NCBI GenBank assembly: GCA_041649715.1
Contig: JBAZMP010000001.1
Location: 82,741-146,740, forward strand
Length of the DNA stretch: 64,000 bases
Direction of reading: 5' to 3'
DNA from: Patescibacteria group bacterium
Lineage (GTDB): Bacteria; Patescibacteriota; Patescibacteriia; JAXHNJ01
Below the pieces are notes generated by a model. The model was not told the origin of the DNA. It made no database searches and worked only from the letters and a program-made list of their open reading frames with translations. Positions 117 through 52,538 of this stretch are shown here, one piece after another. Within the stretch, counting starts at the first letter, position 1, and each line of letters begins with the position of its first letter. Position numbers and translations under genes: made by a program.

Positions 117-228
117 GTCCCGCACCAAATGCCTGTGAAAATTTGCCTGGGTAGCTCAGTGGTAGAGCGAAGGACTGAAAATCCTTGCGTCGCCAGTCCG
201 ATTCTGGCCCCAGGCATTTGGTGCGGGA
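117..228. repeat. 18-bp perfect inverted repeat (tcccgcaccaaatgcctg / caggcatttggtgcggga) enclosing tRNA-Phe
   Basis: Direct reading: the left arm at 117-134 is the exact reverse complement of the right arm at 211-228. The right arm overlaps the tRNA 3' end. Confidence 0.8.
145..216 (+). tRNA. tRNA-Phe, anticodon GAA; no encoded CCA
   Basis: Acceptor gcctggg/cccaggc, D-arm agctcagtggtagagc, anticodon loop ctGAAaa, T-arm gccagtccgattctggc. Confidence 0.88.
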
Positions 229-261
229 TAAAATCCGGACTATAAATATTAAAGAAAATCC

Positions 262-297
262 TGGAGCCTGCCCCGCACTTTGAGCAAAGCGAAATAG
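262..297 (+). repeat. hairpin with the ccccgcac/gtgcgggg stem and a 16-nt loop; member of the CCCGCA-stem family
   Basis: Sequence gccccgcac tttgagcaaagcgaaata gtgcggggt. The same stem sequence appears as hairpin 2 of the element at 4670-4724. Confidence 0.6.
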
Positions 298-303
298 TGC
301 GGG

Positions 304-382
304 GTCGCCAGTCCGCCGTGAACTACTAAAGAGTTCACGACGCCATGTACCCTTTAGTGGTACATGGCGATTCTGGCCCCAG
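304..382 (+). pseudogene. tRNA-Phe 3' fragment (25 nt copy of the T-arm and acceptor 3' strand) interrupted in the T-loop by a 54-nt double-hairpin element
   Basis: gtcgccagtccg at 304-315 and attctggccccag at 370-382 are identical to the tRNA-Phe 3' part. The insert at 316-369 is ccgtgaact-actaaag-agttcacg followed by gccatgtacc-ctttagt-ggtacatggc. Confidence 0.75.
316..369 (+). repeat. double-hairpin element, copy A; loops ACTAAAG and CTTTAGT are mutually complementary
   Basis: Two adjacent perfect hairpins. Homologous copies lie at 4670-4724 and 52367-52421, with compensatory stem changes and the loops preserved. Confidence 0.8.
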
Positions 383-407
383 ACATCAACATTTTTAAAA
401 TTTTACT

Positions 408-3125: not shown

Positions 3126-3478
3126 GCGGGTATAGTATAATGGCTATTACCTGCCCGACTGCTTTGACAGCAGTCAAGGCGGGCGGGTGTCAGCTTTCTC
3201 CCGCAAAATAAGGAAGCGGAGCGACTATATTTTTCGAGGATCCCGCACGCAAAATAATAGTGTTCATTAAGCGGGCATAGTATAATGGCTATTATGTCAG
3301 CTTTCCAAGCTGAAAATACGGGTTCGATTCCCGTTGCCCGCTTAATGAGTGTTATTTTTCGGGATCCTCGCAACAAGATGGATTCACTTTGTTCATCTCA
3401 TCGTTGCGGGACAAGCTGAAAATACGGGTTCTGCGCCCGAGGCGCATCCGCCTTGGGTGGAGATTCCCGTTACCCGCT
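3126..3478 (+). tRNA. split or interrupted tRNA-Gly(TCC) gene with three insertions; either intron-containing or a pseudogene
   Basis: Exon pieces 3126-3149, 3188-3198, 3412-3431 and 3462-3478 reassemble into a tRNA-Gly that is near-identical to the intact copy. The insertions are 3150-3187 (hairpin), 3199-3411 (between anticodon nt 35 and 36, ends tcccgcaa/ttgcggga) and 3432-3461 (T-loop). Confidence 0.6.
3271..3342 (+). tRNA. tRNA-Gly, anticodon TCC, discriminator U; nested inside the 213-nt insertion of the split tRNA-Gly
   Basis: Acceptor gcgggca/tgcccgc, anticodon stem tcagc/gctga with loop ttTCCaa, 4-nt variable loop, T-arm acgggttcgattcccgt. Confidence 0.85.
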
Positions 3479-3579
3479 CCAATTTTTTTCGCTTTTAATA
3501 AGACTTGTTCTGCCGTTGGCAGGGGCCCTGCCCCAAAATTATTATTTTTAACGCCCATTAAGGCGATTTTTTTGTAAAA

Positions 3580-4411: not shown

Positions 4412-4440
4412 TTGACAATAAAAGTTATTGTCCTTATAAT
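4412..4440 (+). promoter_or_regulatory. consensus sigma70-type promoter, TTGACA-17-TATAAT
   Basis: ttgaca at 4412-4417, a 17-nt spacer, and tataat at 4435-4440. Confidence 0.65.
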
Positions 4441-4446
4441 ATAAAT

Positions 4447-4576
4447 AGTTCTTAAGAGACGCTTTTTTCCAAAGCCGGGCAAACAGGTATCGTAACAGTC
4501 GCATAATATGAGGTGGTTCCAATCCACCCTGTTAGATAGCCCGGTACCCCTGCATGTCGCATGCGGGGGTTTTCTT
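4447..4576 (+). ncRNA. candidate small RNA of about 130 nt with a T-arm-like hairpin, ending at an intrinsic terminator
   Basis: Starts just downstream of the consensus promoter. Nested helices gccgggc/gcccggt and aacagg/cctgtt surround ggtggttccaatccacc. Terminator cccctgcatg-tcg-catgcggggg plus tttt at 4547-4576. No ORF. Confidence 0.45.
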
Positions 4577-4651
4577 ATGGAGTGAAAAAGGCTAAGTATT
4601 GCCAAAAGAGAATAAAATGCTTATACTTTTGATATATTGATGGGAAAATAG

Positions 4652-4736
4652 GCCGCCGTGGTGAAATTGCCGTGAACCACTAAAGGGTTCACGGCAACCC
4701 CGCACCCTTTAGTGGTGCGGGGTGGTATACACGCAA
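4652..4736 (+). pseudogene. duplicate of tRNA-Leu(TAA) nt 1-30, interrupted in the D-loop by a 55-nt double-hairpin element
   Basis: gccgccgtggtgaaattg at 4652-4669 and gtatacacgcaa at 4725-4736 are identical to positions 1-30 of the tRNA-Leu at 5011. The insert lies at 4670-4724. Confidence 0.8.
4670..4724 (+). repeat. double-hairpin element, copy B (ccgtgaacc-ACTAAAG-ggttcacgg caa ccccgcacc-CTTTAGT-ggtgcgggg)
   Basis: Same architecture and loops as the copies at 316-369 and 52367-52421. Confidence 0.8.
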
Positions 4737-4747
4737 TAATTAATATT

Positions 4748-5005
4748 ATGCATACAGTCTATATCCTTTTACTTTCGAATAAACAATTATACACTGGAAT
4801 CACTACAAATTTAATACGAAGAATAAATGAGCATAAAGAGAGAAAAAGTCCGTTTACAAAGAATCGATTGCCCGTTAAACTGATATTTTACGAAGTGTTT
4901 AACAATAAGGAAGATGCGGAAAAGAGAGAAAGATATTTTAAAACGAGTAAGGGGAAATATTCATTAAAGGCGTTACTACGACATGCATTGAGCAAATATA
5001 ATTGA
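4748..5005 (+). CDS. GIY-YIG nuclease family protein, small UPF0213/YhbQ-like; the ORF track starts at 4712 but ATG 4748 is the likely start
   Basis: VYILLLSNKQLYTGITTNLIRRINEH matches the GIY-x10-YIG...R...E motif. The upstream extension of the tracked ORF overlaps the tRNA fragment and hairpin element. Confidence 0.7.
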   Translation: MHTVYILLLSNKQLYTGITTNLIRRINEHKERKSPFTKNRLPVKLIFYEVFNNKEDAEKRERYFKTSKGKYSLKALLRHALSKYN

Positions 5006-5010
5006 TCCAT

Positions 5011-5097
5011 GCCGCCGTGGTGAAATTGGTATACACGCAAGACTTAAAATCTTGTGGGAGCAATCCCGTGTCGGTCCGAGTCCGACCGGCGGCACCA
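5011..5097 (+). tRNA. tRNA-Leu, anticodon TAA, type II with a long variable arm; CCA encoded
   Basis: Acceptor gccgccg/cggcggc, anticodon stem caaga/tcttg with loop ctTAAaa, variable arm gggagcaatccc, T-arm gtcggtccgagtccgac, terminal acca. Confidence 0.85.
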
Positions 5098-9252: not shown

Positions 9253-9447
9253 TATCTAATCAGTGGCTCTGCGCCGCTGAAAAAAATAAATTTATCGTCT
9301 GGAGCCGGTTTTACGAAAAAGTTCGCACCTTTTTCGTCTGACCGGTCGGCGGGCGGCCGGTGCGCGGGGGGGTCGGCCGCCCGCCCTGTCCGCGCTTTTT
9401 CTTAAAAAGCCTTCCTTTTTCGTGCCACGCTTCACGTGGCGCGCCGC
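9253..9447. repeat. inverted repeat copy A of the recombinase-associated repeat; 9297-9423 (127 bp) is 100% identical to the reverse complement of 14483-14609
   Basis: Direct comparison with the reverse complement of 14460-14705. The outer 45 nt are diverged. Contains a 12-bp all-GC hairpin, ggcgggcggccg...cggccgcccgcc, and a terminal hairpin whose stem shows compensatory changes between copies. Confidence 0.85.
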
Positions 9448-14459: not shown

Positions 14460-14705
14460 CGGCGCATCTCCCGAAGGGAGATACGAAAAAGGAAGGCTTT
14501 TTAAGAAAAAGCGCGGACAGGGCGGGCGGCCGACCCCCCCCGCGCACCGGCCGCCCGCCGACCGGTCAGACGAAAAAGGTGCGAACTTTTTCGTAAAACC
14601 GGCTCCAGTTCGTAAATTGCGATTTTTTTGTGGCGAATAACCACTGATTAGATAATAAAATTAGGGCTTTTTGCCCGAAGACTTGGAAGTTCGACACCCG
14701 CGACG
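14460..14705. repeat. inverted repeat copy B: inverted relative to both copy A (9253-9447) and copy C (16139-16229)
   Basis: Reverse complement of 14483-14609 equals 9297-9423. Reverse complement of 14609-14705 equals 16139-16229 over about 92 bp. Confidence 0.85.
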
Positions 14706-14773
14706 ACGGGGGGCTCCGCCGGAGGCGGAGCAGCCAATTTTTCTAAGTTTAAATAAAAGCGAAAGCGACAACT

Positions 14774-16237
14774 ATGAAATATTTAATTTACGCCAGAAAA
14801 TCAACGGACGAGGACGACCGGCAAGTATTGTCCATAGAATCGCAAATAACAGAATTAAGAGAATTTGCCGTCAAGGAAAATTTAGAAATTATTGATGAAT
14901 ACATAGAAAGCAAGACGGCCAAAGCGCCCGGTCGTCCTCTTTTTAATAAAATGATAGAACGAATTGAAAAAAACGGTCCCATGGGAATTTTGGCGTGGCA
15001 TCCCGACCGATTGGCGAGAAACAGCATTGACGGAGGGAAAATTATTTATTTGGTTGATACCGGCAAAATCGGCGGTTTAAAGTTTCCCACTTTTTGGTTT
15101 GATGCCACGCCGCAGGGAAAATTCATGCTTAATATCGCTTTCGGCCAGAGCAAATACTATATTGATAACTTGTGTGAAAACATCAAGCGCGGCATACGCC
15201 AGAAATTAAGAAGAGGCGAATGGCCAGGGCTCGCGCCATTAGGGTATCTCAACGAATTGCGCCACCATACAATTATTAAAGACCCCGAGCGTTGGCCCAT
15301 AGTCAAAAAACTCTTTGAGGCGTATGCCGCGGGCAATCATACTTTGGAAAGTTTAAAACAGTTGTCGCTTTCGCTGGGCTTGGTGAGCCGAAGGTCCGGA
15401 AAACCGATAGTCATCACGATACTTTCGGATATGCTGACCAATCCGTTTTATTACGGCGTATTCGAGCACAGCGGTGAAATGCACCAGGGGACGCACGAGC
15501 CGATCATTACCAAACGGCTTTTTGACGCCGTTCAAAAAATCCATAATACCAAGCGCAAGACAAGAGTAAGAAAAGAGCTGATTCCTTTCGCTTTCCGAGG
15601 CGTATTTACCTGCGGCGAGTGCGGCCGAATGATTACGGCGGAAAGAAAGAAAAAGCCGTCAGGATTGAAATATATTTATTACCGCTGTACGAAAAAGAAT
15701 GTTGTTTGTTCCCAGAAATTCCTGGAAGAAAGGCGATTGGTCAGCCAGATTAATAAAACTATTGCGAGCGTCGCCCTTCCCGAAGATTGGAAAGACAAGA
15801 TGATAAAAAGGGTTGACGAAGAGATAAAGCAAGCTAAAACCAAACATCAAGGCGAGATTGTAGTGTTAAAAAATGAGCAAGCTAAGTTAGAATCAAAGCT
15901 TTTGCGACTGCTTGACGAACGGCTTGATCAGGCAATTTCCAAGCAGATTTTTTCCCAAGCAAAACAAAAAATCGTCAACCGGCAGGTTGAGATTAAAGAA
16001 TTGTTGGATGGGTTTAAACGGAAGGGCGACGCTCGGCTCGAACTCTTTAAAGAGTGGATTTTAGAGGCTCACCAAGCCCCTTTTATCGCAAAGCAGGAAA
16101 ATTTAGAAGTTAAGAGAAATTATATACAAAAAATTGGCTCGAACTTCCAAGTCTTCGGGCAAAAAGCCCTAATTTTATTATCTAATCAGTGGTTATTCGC
16201 CACAAAAAAATCGCAATTTACGAACTGGAGCGGGTGA
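14774..16237 (+). CDS. large serine recombinase (resolvase/integrase family with recombinase domain, zinc ribbon and coiled coil)
   Basis: N-terminal YARKSTDEDDRQVLSIESQ with the catalytic Ser-containing motif; recombinase domain. C-terminal Cys cluster CGECG...YYRC. The last roughly 30 codons lie inside repeat copy C. Confidence 0.75.
   Translation: MKYLIYARKSTDEDDRQVLSIESQITELREFAVKENLEIIDEYIESKTAKAPGRPLFNKMIERIEKNGPMGILAWHPDRLARNSIDGGKIIYLVDTGKIGGLKFPTFWFDATPQGKFMLNIAFGQSKYYIDNLCENIKRGIRQKLRRGEWPGLAPLGYLNELRHHTIIKDPERWPIVKKLFEAYAAGNHTLESLKQLSLSLGLVSRRSGKPIVITILSDMLTNPFYYGVFEHSGEMHQGTHEPIITKRLFDAVQKIHNTKRKTRVRKELIPFAFRGVFTCGECGRMITAERKKKPSGLKYIYYRCTKKNVVCSQKFLEERRLVSQINKTIASVALPEDWKDKMIKRVDEEIKQAKTKHQGEIVVLKNEQAKLESKLLRLLDERLDQAISKQIFSQAKQKIVNRQVEIKELLDGFKRKGDARLELFKEWILEAHQAPFIAKQENLEVKRNYIQKIGSNFQVFGQKALILLSNQWLFATKKSQFTNWSG
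16139..16229. repeat. inverted repeat copy C: a 92-bp perfect inverted partner of 14609-14705, ending at the CCA end of tRNA-Gly(GCC)
   Basis: Direct comparison. The repeat stops at ctggagc, overlapping the tRNA 3' terminus. Confidence 0.85.
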
Positions 16238-16419: not shown

Positions 16420-16478
16420 AAAGTTCATTTTCGAAGACCACTTTCCGCCCAAGGCGGACCCGCCTCTGGCGGGGGCTA
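16420..16478 (-). pseudogene. tRNA-Cys-like fragment: ttcgaa, then GC hairpins, then a 12-nt copy of the tRNA-Cys 5' end (ggctacgtgacc)
   Basis: ggctacgtgacc at 16467-16478 duplicates 16373-16384. The preceding ccgcccaaggcgg and cccgcctctggcggg hairpins replace the tRNA body. Confidence 0.45.
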
Positions 16479-52234: not shown

Positions 52235-52347
52235 ATTATTATTTGCACCCTTCCTTTTGATTAATTAATTGATAATTACACTTGAAAATAATTTTAAAAA
52301 AAATGCCTGGTAGGCGGGAATAATATTTAATTTTTAATAAAATTATG

Positions 52348-52424
52348 GTGAGCGTAGAGGGATTCGCCTTGAACTACTGAAGAGTTCACGGCTGCCCCGA
52401 ACCCTTTAGTGGTTTGGGGCGAAC
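52348..52424 (-). pseudogene. tRNA-Lys 3' fragment (copy of the acceptor 3' strand and T-arm) interrupted in the T-loop by a 55-nt double-hairpin element
   Basis: gtgagcgtagagggattcg at 52348-52366 plus aac at 52422-52424 match gtgagcgcagagggattcgaac of the intact gene at 52466-52487. The insert lies at 52367-52421. Confidence 0.75.
52367..52421 (+). repeat. double-hairpin element, copy C (ccttgaact-ACTGAAG-agttcacgg ct gccccgaacc-CTTTAGT-ggtttggggc)
   Basis: The loop 1 A-to-G change still pairs with loop 2 through G:U. The stem 2 changes are compensatory. Confidence 0.8.
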
Positions 52425-52464
52425 TTTTCAATTCCACGTATATTTTAATATGTAATTTTTAAAG

Positions 52465-52538
52465 TGAGCGCAGAGGGATTCGAACCCCCGACACCCTGCT
52501 TAAGAGGCAGGTGCTCTAACCAGCTGAGCTATGCGCCC
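52465..52538 (-). tRNA. tRNA-Lys, anticodon CTT; no CCA
   Basis: Acceptor gggcgca/tgcgctc, anticodon stem cctgc/gcagg with loop ctCTTaa, T-arm gggggttcgaatccctc. Confidence 0.85.

Follow-up and report, generated by a model that had tools for sequence, protein, structure and literature searches.

The 54-nt insert at positions 316-369 is one solitary copy of a large family of hairpin-pair repeats in Patescibacteria. On balance, we regard this dyad-symmetric DNA repeat as probably the terminal cis-element of a selfish family that is specific to Patescibacteria and linked to a GIY-YIG nuclease, with a mechanism, proposed below, that would involve cutting of hairpin-shaped DNA. The family is apparently an undescribed selfish DNA of these ultra-small bacteria, and we found no description of a hairpin-pair/GIY-YIG family in the literature. 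All positions refer to the window, that is, the whole 64-kb stretch of DNA that was analysed.

The intact tRNA-Phe(GAA) gene occupies positions 145-216 of the forward strand (ARAGORN; Rfam tRNA score 68.1 bits) and has the T-loop TCCGATT. A partial second copy of its 3' end starts at position 304, 87 nt past A73 of the intact gene, and is cut in two by the insert. The first part (304-315, forward strand) comprises the variable region, the 5' strand of the T-stem and T54-G57 and is identical to the intact gene in all 12 positions, and the second part (370-385, forward strand) comprises the remaining T-loop and the 3' strands of the T-stem and the acceptor stem, with one substitution (ccccagAca for ccccagGca). 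BLAST aligns 304-315 with tRNA-Phe positions 46-57 and 368-382 with positions 56-70, 25 distinct nucleotides in total, in agreement with the initial annotation, which had described such a 25-nt copy with its T-loop split by a 54-nt double hairpin. The split falls between T-loop positions 56 and 57 (T54 C55 C56 / G57 A58 T59 T60), the insert boundary being ambiguous by the dinucleotide 'cg'. The two perfect hairpins noticed earlier can be read directly from the sequence: hairpin 1 (317-324/332-339) has eight pairs and the loop ACTAAAG, hairpin 2 (342-351/359-368) has ten pairs and the loop CTTTAGT, and each loop is the exact reverse complement of the other. Folding of the region as single-stranded DNA gives -24.7 kcal/mol, as compared to -11.4 +/- 2.3 for shuffled sequences (z = -5.7). 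Positions 181-1248, this copy included, recur without any difference in an independent assembly from another run (Logan SRR8542065), and therefore the copy is not an assembly artefact.

The surroundings of tRNA-Phe contain further repeats. A 17-bp inverted repeat read from the sequence, with the left arm cccgcACCaaatgcctg at 119-135 and the right arm caggcatttGGTgcggg at 211-228 (both given on the forward strand), encloses the gene and overlaps its 3' end. The segment 119-135 looks like an arm of a family-type hairpin (cccgcACC...GGTgcggg) that would hold tRNA-Phe in its loop, and the same arrangement is observed at another locus (L028), around a new tRNA-Arg inside an old tRNA-Arg. The short match gaaaatcct at 254-262 (forward strand) corresponds to tRNA-Phe positions 34-42 and may be a relic of an older tRNA-Phe copy from the anticodon onwards. 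Directly 5' of the tRNA-Phe fragment lies a single hairpin, ccccgcac-(18 nt)-gtgcgggg (271-304, forward strand), at which the family covariance model gives a weak match (262-306, 9.9 bits).

A covariance model built from 26 distinct family members finds exactly three matches in the window (314-369, 4668-4724, and 52365-52421), scoring 74-85 bits, with the next best at 12 bits; the number of copies reported initially is thus reproduced, and the three copies belong to a single subfamily of the repeat family. A search with a 13-nt core recovered all six hairpins of the three copies, with eight matches against 2.4 expected, a count reached in none of 100 shuffles. Each pair scores similarly on the two strands: copy 1 (316-369), which has no nuclease gene, scores 76.9 bits on the forward and 75.3 bits on the reverse strand, copy 2 (4670-4723) 85.2 and 80.8 bits, and copy 3 (52366-52420) 73.7 and 67.5 bits. 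We also considered intrinsic (Rho-independent) terminators as a candidate and rejected it, as the terminator scan reports none of the hairpin pairs and a T tail is absent, the following bases being gattctgg and ggtataca.

Copies 2 and 3 likewise reside in tRNA fragments beside an intact cognate gene, tRNA-Leu(TAA) and tRNA-Lys(CTT), respectively, as had been claimed for every copy. Copy 2, formed by hairpins A (4669-4695) and B (4697-4723), interrupts a D-loop between G18 and G19. It is preceded by a 5' fragment of tRNA-Leu(TAA) positions 1-18 (4652-4669, forward strand), an exact local duplicate (18 of 18) of the intact gene, and followed by ggtatacacgcaa (4724-4736, forward strand), which sequence comparison equates with tRNA-Leu positions 19-30; in related loci, this latter piece travels with the element and does not match the local tRNA. 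The nuclease gene (4748-5005, forward strand) starts 24 nt past copy 2 and ends 5 nt before the intact tRNA-Leu(TAA) (5011-5097, forward strand; ARAGORN and Rfam), the fragment with copy 2 thus preceding the intact gene. The insertion point of copy 3 is T-loop position 56/57 of a tRNA-Lys(CTT) 3' fragment, which lies downstream of the intact gene (52464-52538, reverse strand; ARAGORN and Rfam), which has no encoded CCA. Past the hairpins, the fragment reads gaatccctctAcgctcaCCA (52346-52365, reverse strand), with one substitution and with the encoded CCA that the intact gene lacks, and before them only 'gttc' (52421-52424) is left. This copy is degenerate, with one mismatch per stem and forward-strand loops ACTGAAG/CTTTAGT, and, with the conserved stem taken as a guide, it is oriented oppositely to copy 1 with respect to the tRNA. 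Other hairpin inserts are present in at least three more tRNA fragments of the window; the initial annotation did not mention them.

Comparison of related loci revealed a fuller form of the element, in which the hairpin pair is followed by a tRNA-derived relic of 7-13 nt and then by a stand-alone GIY-YIG gene for 81-85 aa from the UPF0213/SLX1-like branch, the distance from hairpins to ATG being typically 9-27 nt. The fuller element is co-oriented with the tRNA gene and located just outside one end of the complete tRNA. On its far side lies an extra copy of the neighbouring tRNA segment, bounded by a loop position X and by either approximately +1 or the 3' end. The insertion points X are D-loop positions 17-19, anticodon-loop positions 35-37, T-loop position 56/57, and the CCA end, all of them single-stranded in the cloverleaf. 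Since the tRNA segment is duplicated, one complete tRNA is left and the displaced piece retains the hairpins. These redundant tRNA pieces are dead and, where the loop target remains, contain either paired or single hairpins; in the window, the Phe and Lys fragments are such tRNA debris with nuclease-less copies. Duplications beginning exactly at tRNA position +1 would have hinted at an RNA template; this idea was dropped, as the duplicated segment reaches 0-7 nt further upstream at different loci.

The family was found at the genes of five tRNA-Leu isoacceptors and of tRNA-Arg, tRNA-Phe, tRNA-Lys, and tRNA-Trp in at least 11 genomes, with copies in the T-loop, D-loop, or anticodon loop of fragments next to the intact cognate tRNA. 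Twenty of the 31 loci detected by a pattern scan of a genome collection belong to Patescibacteria-type genomes. Matches in other bacteria (Kocuria, Bacillus, Clostridia, Coprovivens, Bdellovibrio, Fibrobacteria, and one Actinomycetes genome) were set aside: L004, L021, and L024 are single long palindromes with mutually pairing cores, not two hairpins, and the remaining ones match the pattern on one strand only. Any inverted-repeat pattern also catches single long palindromes. The IMG/VR viral contigs contained neither the hairpin pair nor a relative of the nuclease, and a phage origin was therefore rejected. Several loci bear traces of repeated insertion. In particular, two inserts occur within one dead fragment in L057 and L059, loci L045 and L052 are identical except that the former carries two tandem units and the latter a single unit, L041 contains two different hairpin pairs in successive fragments at the same or nearby D-loop target, and tandem or repeated arrays are present in L006, L032, L065, and L085. 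Judged by such comparisons between loci, from which all evidence of mobility comes, the family appears to behave like mobile DNA. The spread over many tRNA genes and genomes, the tandem re-insertion and the copy-number polymorphism bear out the suggestion, made at the outset, of a mobile element family tied to tRNA loops; its alternative, a small structured RNA, is not supported, in view of strand symmetry, the occurrence of both orientations and the composition of the stems, as detailed below.

The link of the hairpins to a nuclease gene, which begins 24 nt past copy 2, was absent from the initial annotation. The only Pfam match of the 85-aa protein is GIY-YIG (PF01541, E = 2e-15), covering residues 1-70 of 85; it is a UPF0213/YhbQ-like bare catalytic domain with no separate DNA-binding domain, and the proteins of the family are 77-87 aa long. 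The nearest solved structures are the UPF0213 proteins 1zg2 and 1ywl, followed by the structure-specific nuclease SLX1, and multiple alignment of seven sequences revealed invariant catalytic-type residues Y5, Y15, G17, R24/R25, H29, and E49. The source assembly lacks an annotation of this gene, and exact-protein look-ups with its 85-aa and 97-aa starts returned no record. In the hairpin-seeded sample, 8 of approximately 25 copies are located 23-110 nt upstream of a GIY-YIG ORF. In the converse sample, consisting of 80 metagenome loci and seeded with the nuclease, at least one family-type hairpin is present within 160 nt upstream of the ATG in 54 of 73 loci (0 of 123 control windows), and a same-strand tRNA adjoins in 69 of 80. 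Closely related nucleases, 73-86% identical, are found at tRNA-Leu genes with anticodons TAA, TAG, CAG, CAA, and GAG. Loops of the ACTAAAG type accompany two nuclease clades that share only about 46% identity, and the loop type is therefore no simple tracker of the protein.

The boundary of the element was determined from the tRNA-Leu D-loop clade (ten distinct hairpin copies at nine loci). The 17 nt preceding the hairpins differ from the local tRNA in 3 of 170 positions, as compared to 43 of 120 for the 12 nt following them (Fisher p = 8e-16). Thus the left DNA is an exact local duplicate and the right DNA is not, and hence the hairpin pair marks an end of the element. In the mechanism that we propose, the nuclease would recognize and cut DNA shaped as hairpins or cloverleaves, both in the element itself and at tRNA-gene loops. 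Subsequent insertion of the element, or its copying in during repair, would duplicate the part of the tRNA that lies between the cleavage site and the tRNA end. Under this model, solitary hairpin pairs would have decayed or be non-autonomous, persisting only in tRNA pieces that are not essential. Several points stand against this model. The fragments with the Phe and Lys copies lie downstream of the tRNA and no nuclease gene intervenes, and a mirrored layout with the nuclease on the opposite strand, which would explain them, was observed in none of the 80 loci. At the anticodon-loop loci L046, L055, L068, L110, and L042, the upstream fragment differs considerably from the intact tRNA, and so simple local duplication does not fit some loci. 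The element gives the host site no protection, because the adjoining intact tRNA retains the presumed target. Finally, to our knowledge a hydrolytic GIY-YIG nuclease alone cannot join DNA, and we know of no precedent for target duplications of 15-56 nt.

A bolder version of the model, which we consider possible though doubtful, is a new class of DNA transposon. The bare SLX1/UPF0213-type nuclease would serve as a structure-specific 'transposase' that cuts its own terminal hairpins and the single-stranded loops of tRNA genes in cloverleaf form, with solitary pairs such as that at 316-369 representing non-autonomous forms of the transposon. As each insertion would duplicate the tRNA segment from the cut loop to the end, the essential gene would survive every hit.

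A different origin, to which we assign a small probability, is that the inserts are scars: hairpin filler copied from other hairpin repeats would have landed at nuclease breaks in redundant tRNA pieces, neither moved nor recognized by anything, and would persist by destroying the target of the nuclease. Indeed, every redundant tRNA piece in the window that contains a loop has a hairpin insert, and these inserts belong to at least two unrelated hairpin families; locus L018 is a hybrid of one small hairpin of another family and hairpin B at the same T-loop site; and the junctions have microhomologies of 1-4 nt (g/g, ca/ca, gcca/gcca). However, the hairpins keep their fixed distance upstream of the nuclease gene despite wide divergence, including at tRNA 3'-end loci, where there is nothing to inactivate, and copies also occur outside recognizable tRNA sequence (L009, L011, L014, L015, L027, L029, and L033). 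Unlike filler DNA, the stems remain perfectly paired through many substitutions. Among 26 distinct copies, pairing is kept in 97.1% of alignment cells although both partners vary in 15 of the 20 pairs; the compensatory change, suggested earlier by substitutions in stem 2, is thus real. The covariation score is 0.543, as compared to 0.191 in shuffles, none of which (0 of 500) reaches the observed value, and it drops to at most 0.09 when the partners are slid by 1-3 columns.

Conserved pairing might also reflect a role in RNA, in which the hairpins would be a 5'-UTR or processing module of a transcript running from the tRNA promoter through the nuclease mRNA and the tRNA; they would stabilize the 5' end of the mRNA or direct cleavage between tRNA and mRNA, and solitary copies would be relics. 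In agreement with this, the hairpins are always upstream of the ORF and co-oriented with the tRNA, and at tRNA 3'-end loci the first hairpin begins with the tRNA's own CCA (CCA/TGAACC...GGTTCATGG). A promoter-like site, TTGCCA-17-TATACT (4599-4627, forward strand), was found by a consensus scan approximately 25 nt upstream of the tRNA-Leu 5' fragment, although such a match is not evidence of function. On the other hand, the conserved features are invariant to reverse complementation, and the two strands receive similar covariance-model scores. Among the 468 pairs of 78 hairpins, the non-Watson-Crick ones comprise 7 G·T, 4 A·C, and 15 others; G·U-type pairs thus make up 1.5% of stem pairs with no excess over A·C, a comparison in which just 11 pairs are informative. 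Relative to the tRNA, solitary copies are found in either orientation (copies 1 and 3), and they are also found away from any ORF; no Rfam family matches. Since there is no enrichment of G·T pairs and both strands show the same conserved features, the pattern of substitutions points to a hairpin acting at the level of DNA, and we consider the role in RNA improbable.

Arms of 9-11 bp around a spacer of 6-7 bp resemble the dif, lox, and FRT sites, and the hairpins could be core sites of a tyrosine recombinase, with the tRNA fragments being attL/attR-type duplications left by integrase islands. This is very improbable. A direct repeat of the tRNA 3' end downstream of the tRNA, the classic footprint of an integrative element, is present for Phe and Lys, and there is an integrase-type island at another tRNA in the window. 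However, only 87 nt (Phe) and approximately 40 nt (Lys) separate the tRNA from the fragment, with no island between them and no recombinase gene nearby; 5' fragments upstream of tRNAs are equally common; and the linked gene encodes a nuclease rather than a recombinase. Moreover, the variable arm positions covary, which a protein binding to duplex DNA would not require.

The initial annotation read the insert as a small structured non-coding RNA with a tRNA-related function, in which the two 7-nt loops kiss. We find this hardly credible. The stems do covary strongly, and exact reverse complementarity of the two loops is seen in 14 of 16 paired copies of the ACTAAAG subfamily, but the two variants, ACTGAAG/CTTTAGT (copy 3) and ACTAAAG/CTTCAGT (L040), each have a single-base change that is not compensated. 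In relatives from the wider family with 6-nt loops, the first loop has 0-6 mismatches to the complement of the second. The linker between paired hairpins is 0-2 nt, which, given the known geometry of kissing loops, would be too short for a coaxial complex of two 10-bp stems. The symmetry of the two strands and the occurrence of both orientations relative to the tRNA likewise argue against it.

An archaeal-type (bulge-helix-bulge) or self-splicing intron in a tRNA gene still in use is practically untenable and contradicted by the sequence: although the positions in the D-loop, at 35/36 and at 56/57 recall non-canonical archaeal introns and group I introns at 35/36 are known in tRNA genes of Patescibacteria (PMC13011429), the tRNA pieces that flank the insert measure only 25-30 nt and adjoin a complete cognate gene, the host is a bacterium with a 16S rRNA gene just upstream of the window, the predicted folds lack a bulge-helix-bulge and place the junctions at the bases of two self-contained hairpins without 3-nt bulges 4 bp apart, and no Rfam intron matches the whole window at the gathering score or the region around copy 1 at E <= 10.

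If the hairpin pair is indeed an end of a nuclease-linked selfish element, a compact (approximately 340 bp) and widespread element would be added to the ultra-small genomes of Patescibacteria. Its niche would be the loops of tRNA genes, the most conserved DNA of the cell, where the host is spared by duplication of the displaced tRNA part. The large uncharacterized UPF0213/YhbQ-type family of mini GIY-YIG proteins would acquire a testable function, structure-specific cutting of hairpin DNA, and a nuclease that reads DNA shape at defined tRNA positions could possibly become a reagent. The element would also account for the debris of tRNA fragments and the nested tRNA-in-tRNA genes that will confuse tRNA annotation in Patescibacteria, and it would be a bacterial parallel to the unexplained double-hairpin elements of fungal mitochondria.

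Among known systems, the REP/BIME (REPIN)-RAYT elements of proteobacteria are similar in that short hairpin units form inverted pairs (here, the conserved loop and closing bases are reverse-complementary), many dispersed copies without a nuclease accompany one or a few beside a small nuclease gene, and stems evolve yet stay paired and act as DNA. In contrast, the protein linked here is GIY-YIG, not an HUH/Y1 (IS200/IS605-like) RAYT; the units have no GTAG head, but start with CC or GCC and read CCNNGNACC; the copies reside in tRNA-gene loops and tRNA fragments rather than in general extragenic space; and insertion is accompanied by duplication of a tRNA segment. REP elements number tens to hundreds of extragenic copies per genome; the 64 kb analysed here, part of a contig of approximately 221 kb, contain three copies.

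Free-standing GIY-YIG homing genes provide a second parallel. Paquin, Laforest and Lang reportedly described in 1994 an insertion in the Allomyces mitochondrial atp6 gene that carries a replacement gene end. As in our family, a functional copy is preserved through duplication of a part of the target, the displaced part being a dead remnant, and a GIY-YIG gene, here with conserved catalytic residues, lies among or against tRNA genes, as does that of the homing endonuclease SegB in the tRNA cluster of phage T4 (PMC2330249). Enzymes of the Seg/I-TevI type differ in having about 200-250 aa with a DNA-binding domain and a long specific target, whereas the protein found here is a bare catalytic domain of about 85 aa from the UPF0213/SLX1 branch. 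Their occupied allele lacks the target and is immune, and their empty allele is cut, whereas here the intact target is kept and seems to have been re-invaded (L045 as compared to L052, and L041). A conserved hairpin pair that forms one end of the element is likewise a difference from these genes.

Another resemblance is to the double-hairpin elements (DHEs) found in chytrid and fission-yeast mitochondria (Paquin et al. 2000; PMC10085805) and to the GC clusters of yeast mitochondria (PMC4478555). They too consist of two adjacent GC-rich hairpins of some tens of bases, occur in multiple apparently mobile copies, and are tolerated between genes as well as in the variable portions of RNA genes. 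By description they are organellar and eukaryotic, with no dedicated nuclease gene or targeting of tRNA loops, whereas our contig is bacterial and carries 16S rRNA and housekeeping genes. Non-canonical tRNA introns of archaea, for which transposition in Thermoproteales was reportedly proposed by Fujishima et al. in 2010, are similar in that related short inserts occupy D-, anticodon-, and T-loop positions of different tRNA genes; here, the inserts are in dead bacterial fragments without a bulge-helix-bulge, each beside a complete tRNA. Finally, the group I introns inserted at 35/36 in tRNA genes of Patescibacteria (PMC13011429) share with our family the phylum, the tRNA-gene habitat and, for many relatives, the same unusual position in the anticodon loop, but in place of a ribozyme there are hairpins of approximately 54 nt, and the gene is restored by duplication rather than by splicing.

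The double-hairpin insert downstream of tRNA-Phe (copy 1) interrupts a partial duplicate of that gene. The intact tRNA-Phe(GAA) occupies positions 145-216, and the fragment starts 87 nt downstream, at 304. Its first 12 nt (304-315) match the tRNA from the variable region through the 5' T-stem strand into the start of the T-loop; the 15 nt from 368 on match the remainder of the T-loop, the 3' T-stem strand and a portion of the acceptor strand. The 54-nt insert between them (316-369, with a boundary ambiguous by 'cg') folds into a pair of perfect hairpins, one of 8 bp and one of 10 bp, whose 7-nt loops are ACTAAAG and CTTTAGT. As single-stranded DNA, each strand is about 13 kcal/mol more stable than shuffled sequence (z about -5.7). 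Copy 1 is identical in an independent assembly of another sequencing run; the feature is real and no artefact.

The intact tRNA-Phe is enclosed by cccgcACCaaat ... atttGGTgcggg (119-228), an arrangement like that of a nested tRNA-Arg in L028, a locus outside the window. The 86-nt spacer ahead of the fragment contains a relic, gaaaatcct, of tRNA-Phe positions 34-42, as well as a hairpin at 271-304. Judging from the enclosing repeat and these relics, copy 1 lies among the layered remains of an older tRNA-Phe gene. The T-loops of tRNA-Phe (198-204) and tRNA-Leu (5071-5077) read TCCGA, with C at position 55 instead of the near-universal T, and likewise in tRNAs of L018, L071, L090 and L100. The leader and trailer of tRNA-Ile (1-12 and 86-101) are complementary over 12 nt (gaggcagatggt / accatttgcctc), a pairing that lengthens the acceptor stem and takes in the encoded CCA; tRNA-Gly(TCC) has a comparable long flanking stem, cgaggatcccg...cgggatcctcg.

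The window holds exactly three copies, as found both by a search for the hairpin core and by a covariance model of 26 distinct family members. Copy 2 (4670-4723) lies upstream of the intact tRNA-Leu gene, where it interrupts a duplicate of positions 1-30 of that tRNA at G18/G19; copy 3 (52366-52420) lies downstream of the intact tRNA-Lys gene and interrupts, at 56/57, a duplicate of the 3' end of that tRNA. An 85-aa ORF begins 24 nt past copy 2 and ends 5 nt ahead of the intact tRNA-Leu. Just upstream of this locus are a perfect sigma-70 consensus, TTGACA-17-TATAAT (4412-4440), and then a strong terminator-like hairpin (4546-4570). The 221-kb contig has ordinary bacterial housekeeping genes, and its bacterial 16S rRNA gene lies immediately ahead of the window. 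About 9.3 kb upstream of the window start (L001, 145-317), two tandem tRNA genes have the anticodon CTA (amber-suppressor type) and are labelled tRNA-Pyl by ARAGORN.

A hairpin-seeded pattern scan, covering one genome per species, gave 31 loci; 20 of them, from at least 11 genomes, are of Patescibacteria type. Matches outside Patescibacteria, where inspected (L004, L021, L024), are single long palindromes. Relatives of both the element and its nuclease come from Patescibacteria (Parcubacteria-type) genomes. True members share the inner three pairs and the loops, ACY-ACTAAAG-RGT ... ACY-CTTTAGT-RGT, and the outer seven pairs of each stem vary freely with complementarity kept. Among 26 distinct copies, 97.1% of cells are paired, both sides have changed at 15 of 20 pairs, and the covariation score is 0.543, compared with 0.191 for shuffled sequences and at most 0.09 with the partners slid. 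The initial annotation had described the Phe fragment, its T-loop split by a 54-nt double hairpin and its recurrence in three copies, all confirmed here by sequence comparison and the covariance model; it had also considered descent from one recent duplication lacking compensatory changes, and the freely varying, paired and covarying stems show that the copies did not arise in that way. Approximately 70% of the copies lie inside recognisable tRNA fragments adjoining the intact cognate tRNA, in the T-loop at 56/57 (Phe, Lys, Trp, Arg-TCT), in the D-loop at 17-19 (five Leu isoacceptors) or in the anticodon loop (Arg-CCG).

The ORF following copy 2 (4748-5005, plus strand) encodes a GIY-YIG catalytic domain alone (Pfam E = 2e-15). 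Among solved structures, the UPF0213 proteins BH0048 and EF2693 are closest to it, with the structure-specific nuclease SLX1 next; database names for the protein are generic ('GIY-YIG nuclease family protein', 'putative endonuclease'). In the hairpin-seeded sample, 8 of about 25 hairpin pairs have a GIY-YIG ORF 23-110 nt downstream. A metagenome scan with an alignment of seven nuclease sequences yielded 223 relatives, and 80 loci were kept. A same-strand tRNA directly adjoins the ORF in 69 of these, lying within 150 nt downstream in 49 and ending at most 350 nt upstream in the other 20. At least one family-type hairpin (CCNNGNACC-loop-GGTNCNNGG) is present within 160 nt before the start codon in 54 of 73 cases versus 0 of 123 control windows, and the hairpin ends 9-27 nt from the ATG. 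These relatives have 6-nt loops of two classes, ACGTAG, ACGTTG and ACGTGG, and approximately their complements, CTACGT, CAACGT and CCACGT. Their commonest insertion point is the anticodon loop of tRNA-Leu (35/36 or 36/37); others are at the tRNA 3' end, where the first hairpin opens with the tRNA's own CCA and the insert is flanked by a 4-nt GCCA repeat. Given these loops and insertion points, the ACTAAAG/CTTTAGT element constitutes one subfamily.

The order at internal sites is always the same: tRNA from position 1 to the insertion point, hairpin pair, 7-13 nt continuing the tRNA, nuclease ORF, spacer of 0-30 nt and complete tRNA. The tRNA duplicate begins 0-7 nt upstream of position +1. For the tRNA-Leu D-loop clade, the left edge was compared across ten distinct hairpin copies taken from nine loci. 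The 17 nt before the hairpins copy the local tRNA (3 mismatches in 170 positions), whereas the 12 nt past them do not (43 in 120; p = 8e-16), and several variants of this 12-nt piece recur at different isoacceptors. Thus the left edge is the junction between locally duplicated target DNA and DNA travelling with the nuclease gene. Nucleases 73-86% identical occur at Leu-TAA, TAG, CAG, CAA and GAG genes, so the unit has moved between paralogous targets, with a faithful local duplicate each time. Two tandem units are present in L045 versus one in the otherwise identical L052; in L041, two successive fragments carry different hairpin pairs, at the same D-loop target or close to it, and tandem arrays occur in L006, L032, L065 and L085. 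The intact tRNA therefore remains a target. Two inserts lie within one dead fragment in L057 and in L059. A nuclease gene copy in L010 (6252-6497) is a pseudogene with an in-frame stop codon, and in L012, from the same genome, a hairpin pair lies 36 nt from an intact tRNA-Leu with no ORF between, which suggests decay from nuclease-bearing to solitary copies.

A small unit that resides at tRNA genes and bears a bare GIY-YIG nuclease has the hairpin pair as one of its ends. Its insertion points coincide with single-stranded parts of the cloverleaf, and insertion is accompanied by duplication of the tRNA segment from the insertion point to the nearer tRNA end, with a complete tRNA kept. The earlier suggestion of a mobile element family that targets tRNA loops was essentially right.

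The conserved hairpin features are invariant under reverse complementation, and scores from the covariance model are nearly the same on either strand (85/81, 77/75 and 74/68 bits for the three window copies). With the conserved stem as the guide, copies 1 and 3 have opposite orientations relative to their tRNAs. The 468 stem pairs examined in 78 distinct hairpins, read on the nuclease-gene sense strand, include 7 G·T, 4 A·C and 15 other non-Watson-Crick pairs, small numbers that display neither G·U tolerance nor strand bias. Rfam has no family matching the hairpins. An RNA-level role in a tRNA-nuclease co-transcript is conceivable, and the promoter-like site just upstream of the Leu fragment would fit it. 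The structured RNA with kissing loops proposed initially was not borne out: both loop variants observed are uncompensated, loop 1 has 0-6 mismatches to the complement of loop 2 in relatives, and the 0-2-nt linker would be too short for the far ends of a coaxial kissing complex, so that, the strand symmetry considered, kissing is unlikely. A terminator is dismissed, the hairpins not being terminator-like. Strand symmetry, the orientation of copy 3, the pair counts and the negative Rfam and terminator results favour a hairpin that matters as DNA.

Nested tRNA genes were also observed. In L028, a family-type hairpin, ccccgcACC ... GATgcgggg, interrupts the D-loop of an old tRNA-Arg and holds a new tRNA-Arg in its own loop. 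In L019 (3740-4040), an outer tRNA-Leu(TAG) has a D-loop hairpin pair and, a few bases on, a complete, different tRNA-Leu(TAG); ARAGORN calls two overlapping tRNAs there. At 3126-3481 of the window, tRNA-Gly(TCC) (3270-3343) is nested in an older tRNA-Gly(TCC) split at the anticodon loop, whose 5' half (3126-3149 and 3188-3198) and 3' half (3412-3431 and 3462-3481) pair via a compensated acceptor pair (gcgggTa/tAcccgc versus gcgggCa/tGcccgc in the new gene). The inserted piece has the ends tcccgcaa...ttgcggga, and the old 5' half contains a 38-nt hairpin insert (3150-3187). A second, unrelated family of small double hairpins, such as tgcgcccgaggcgca + tccgccttgggtgga, is found at 3432-3461 and 16444-16473, and also at 14715-14729. 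It occupies the same kinds of site: in the 3' half of the old tRNA-Gly it lies at T-loop 56/57, and upstream of the minus-strand tRNA-Cys it lies in the D-loop of a 5' fragment of that tRNA. One such small hairpin is fused to hairpin B, the second of the pair, in L018, and L023 has one inside a tRNA-Lys fragment. The gene for a 487-aa large serine recombinase (14774-16237; Pfam Resolvase, Recombinase and zinc ribbon) and tRNA-Gly(GCC) overlap at their 3' ends. The sequence at this junction recurs at 9253-9309 in direct orientation (74% identical) and at 14600-14700 in inverted orientation, an arrangement that resembles either an island of about 7 kb integrated at this tRNA or an invertible segment.

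The nuclease, related to SLX1 and having no DNA-binding domain, may recognise DNA by its shape. It would act on its own hairpins and on tRNA-gene loops that are extruded or single-stranded in replication or heavy transcription. The duplication could be produced by staggered cutting or by repair synthesis. Hairpin pairs that stand alone, like the one at 316-369, would be derivatives, either non-autonomous or decayed, that are tolerated solely in redundant tRNA pieces. From sequence comparison, copy 1 is probably a copy of a nuclease-linked, tRNA-targeting selfish DNA element; the specific idea that the nuclease is a structure-specific transposase is rather doubtful. Weaknesses of the proposal are that upstream fragments differ from the local tRNA at several anticodon-loop loci, that neither the hairpin- nor the nuclease-seeded sample contains a nuclease-bearing counterpart of the Phe/Lys downstream-fragment layout, and that the ACTAAAG loop type is found with two distant nuclease clades.

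In its working, the element is most like the REP/REPIN-RAYT system, which also combines inverted hairpin pairs with a small nuclease gene. However, it fails the defining tests of that system, since its enzyme is not an HUH/Y1 protein and it has no GTAG head. Free-standing GIY-YIG homing endonucleases share the catalytic fold and the replacement gene part carried along, as is reportedly the case for the GIY-YIG insertion in Allomyces atp6. For the replacement gene part, T4 SegB, a free-standing GIY-YIG endonuclease in a tRNA cluster, is a parallel (PMC2330249). In contrast to these enzymes, the nuclease described here lacks their DNA-binding domain and its own target is not removed. The mitochondrial double-hairpin elements (PMC10085805) resemble the hairpin pair in shape. 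The pair is no intron. Group I introns have been reported from Patescibacteria tRNA genes at 35/36 (PMC13011429), but they are another kind of insert at that shared position. No description of the element was found in the published literature searched.
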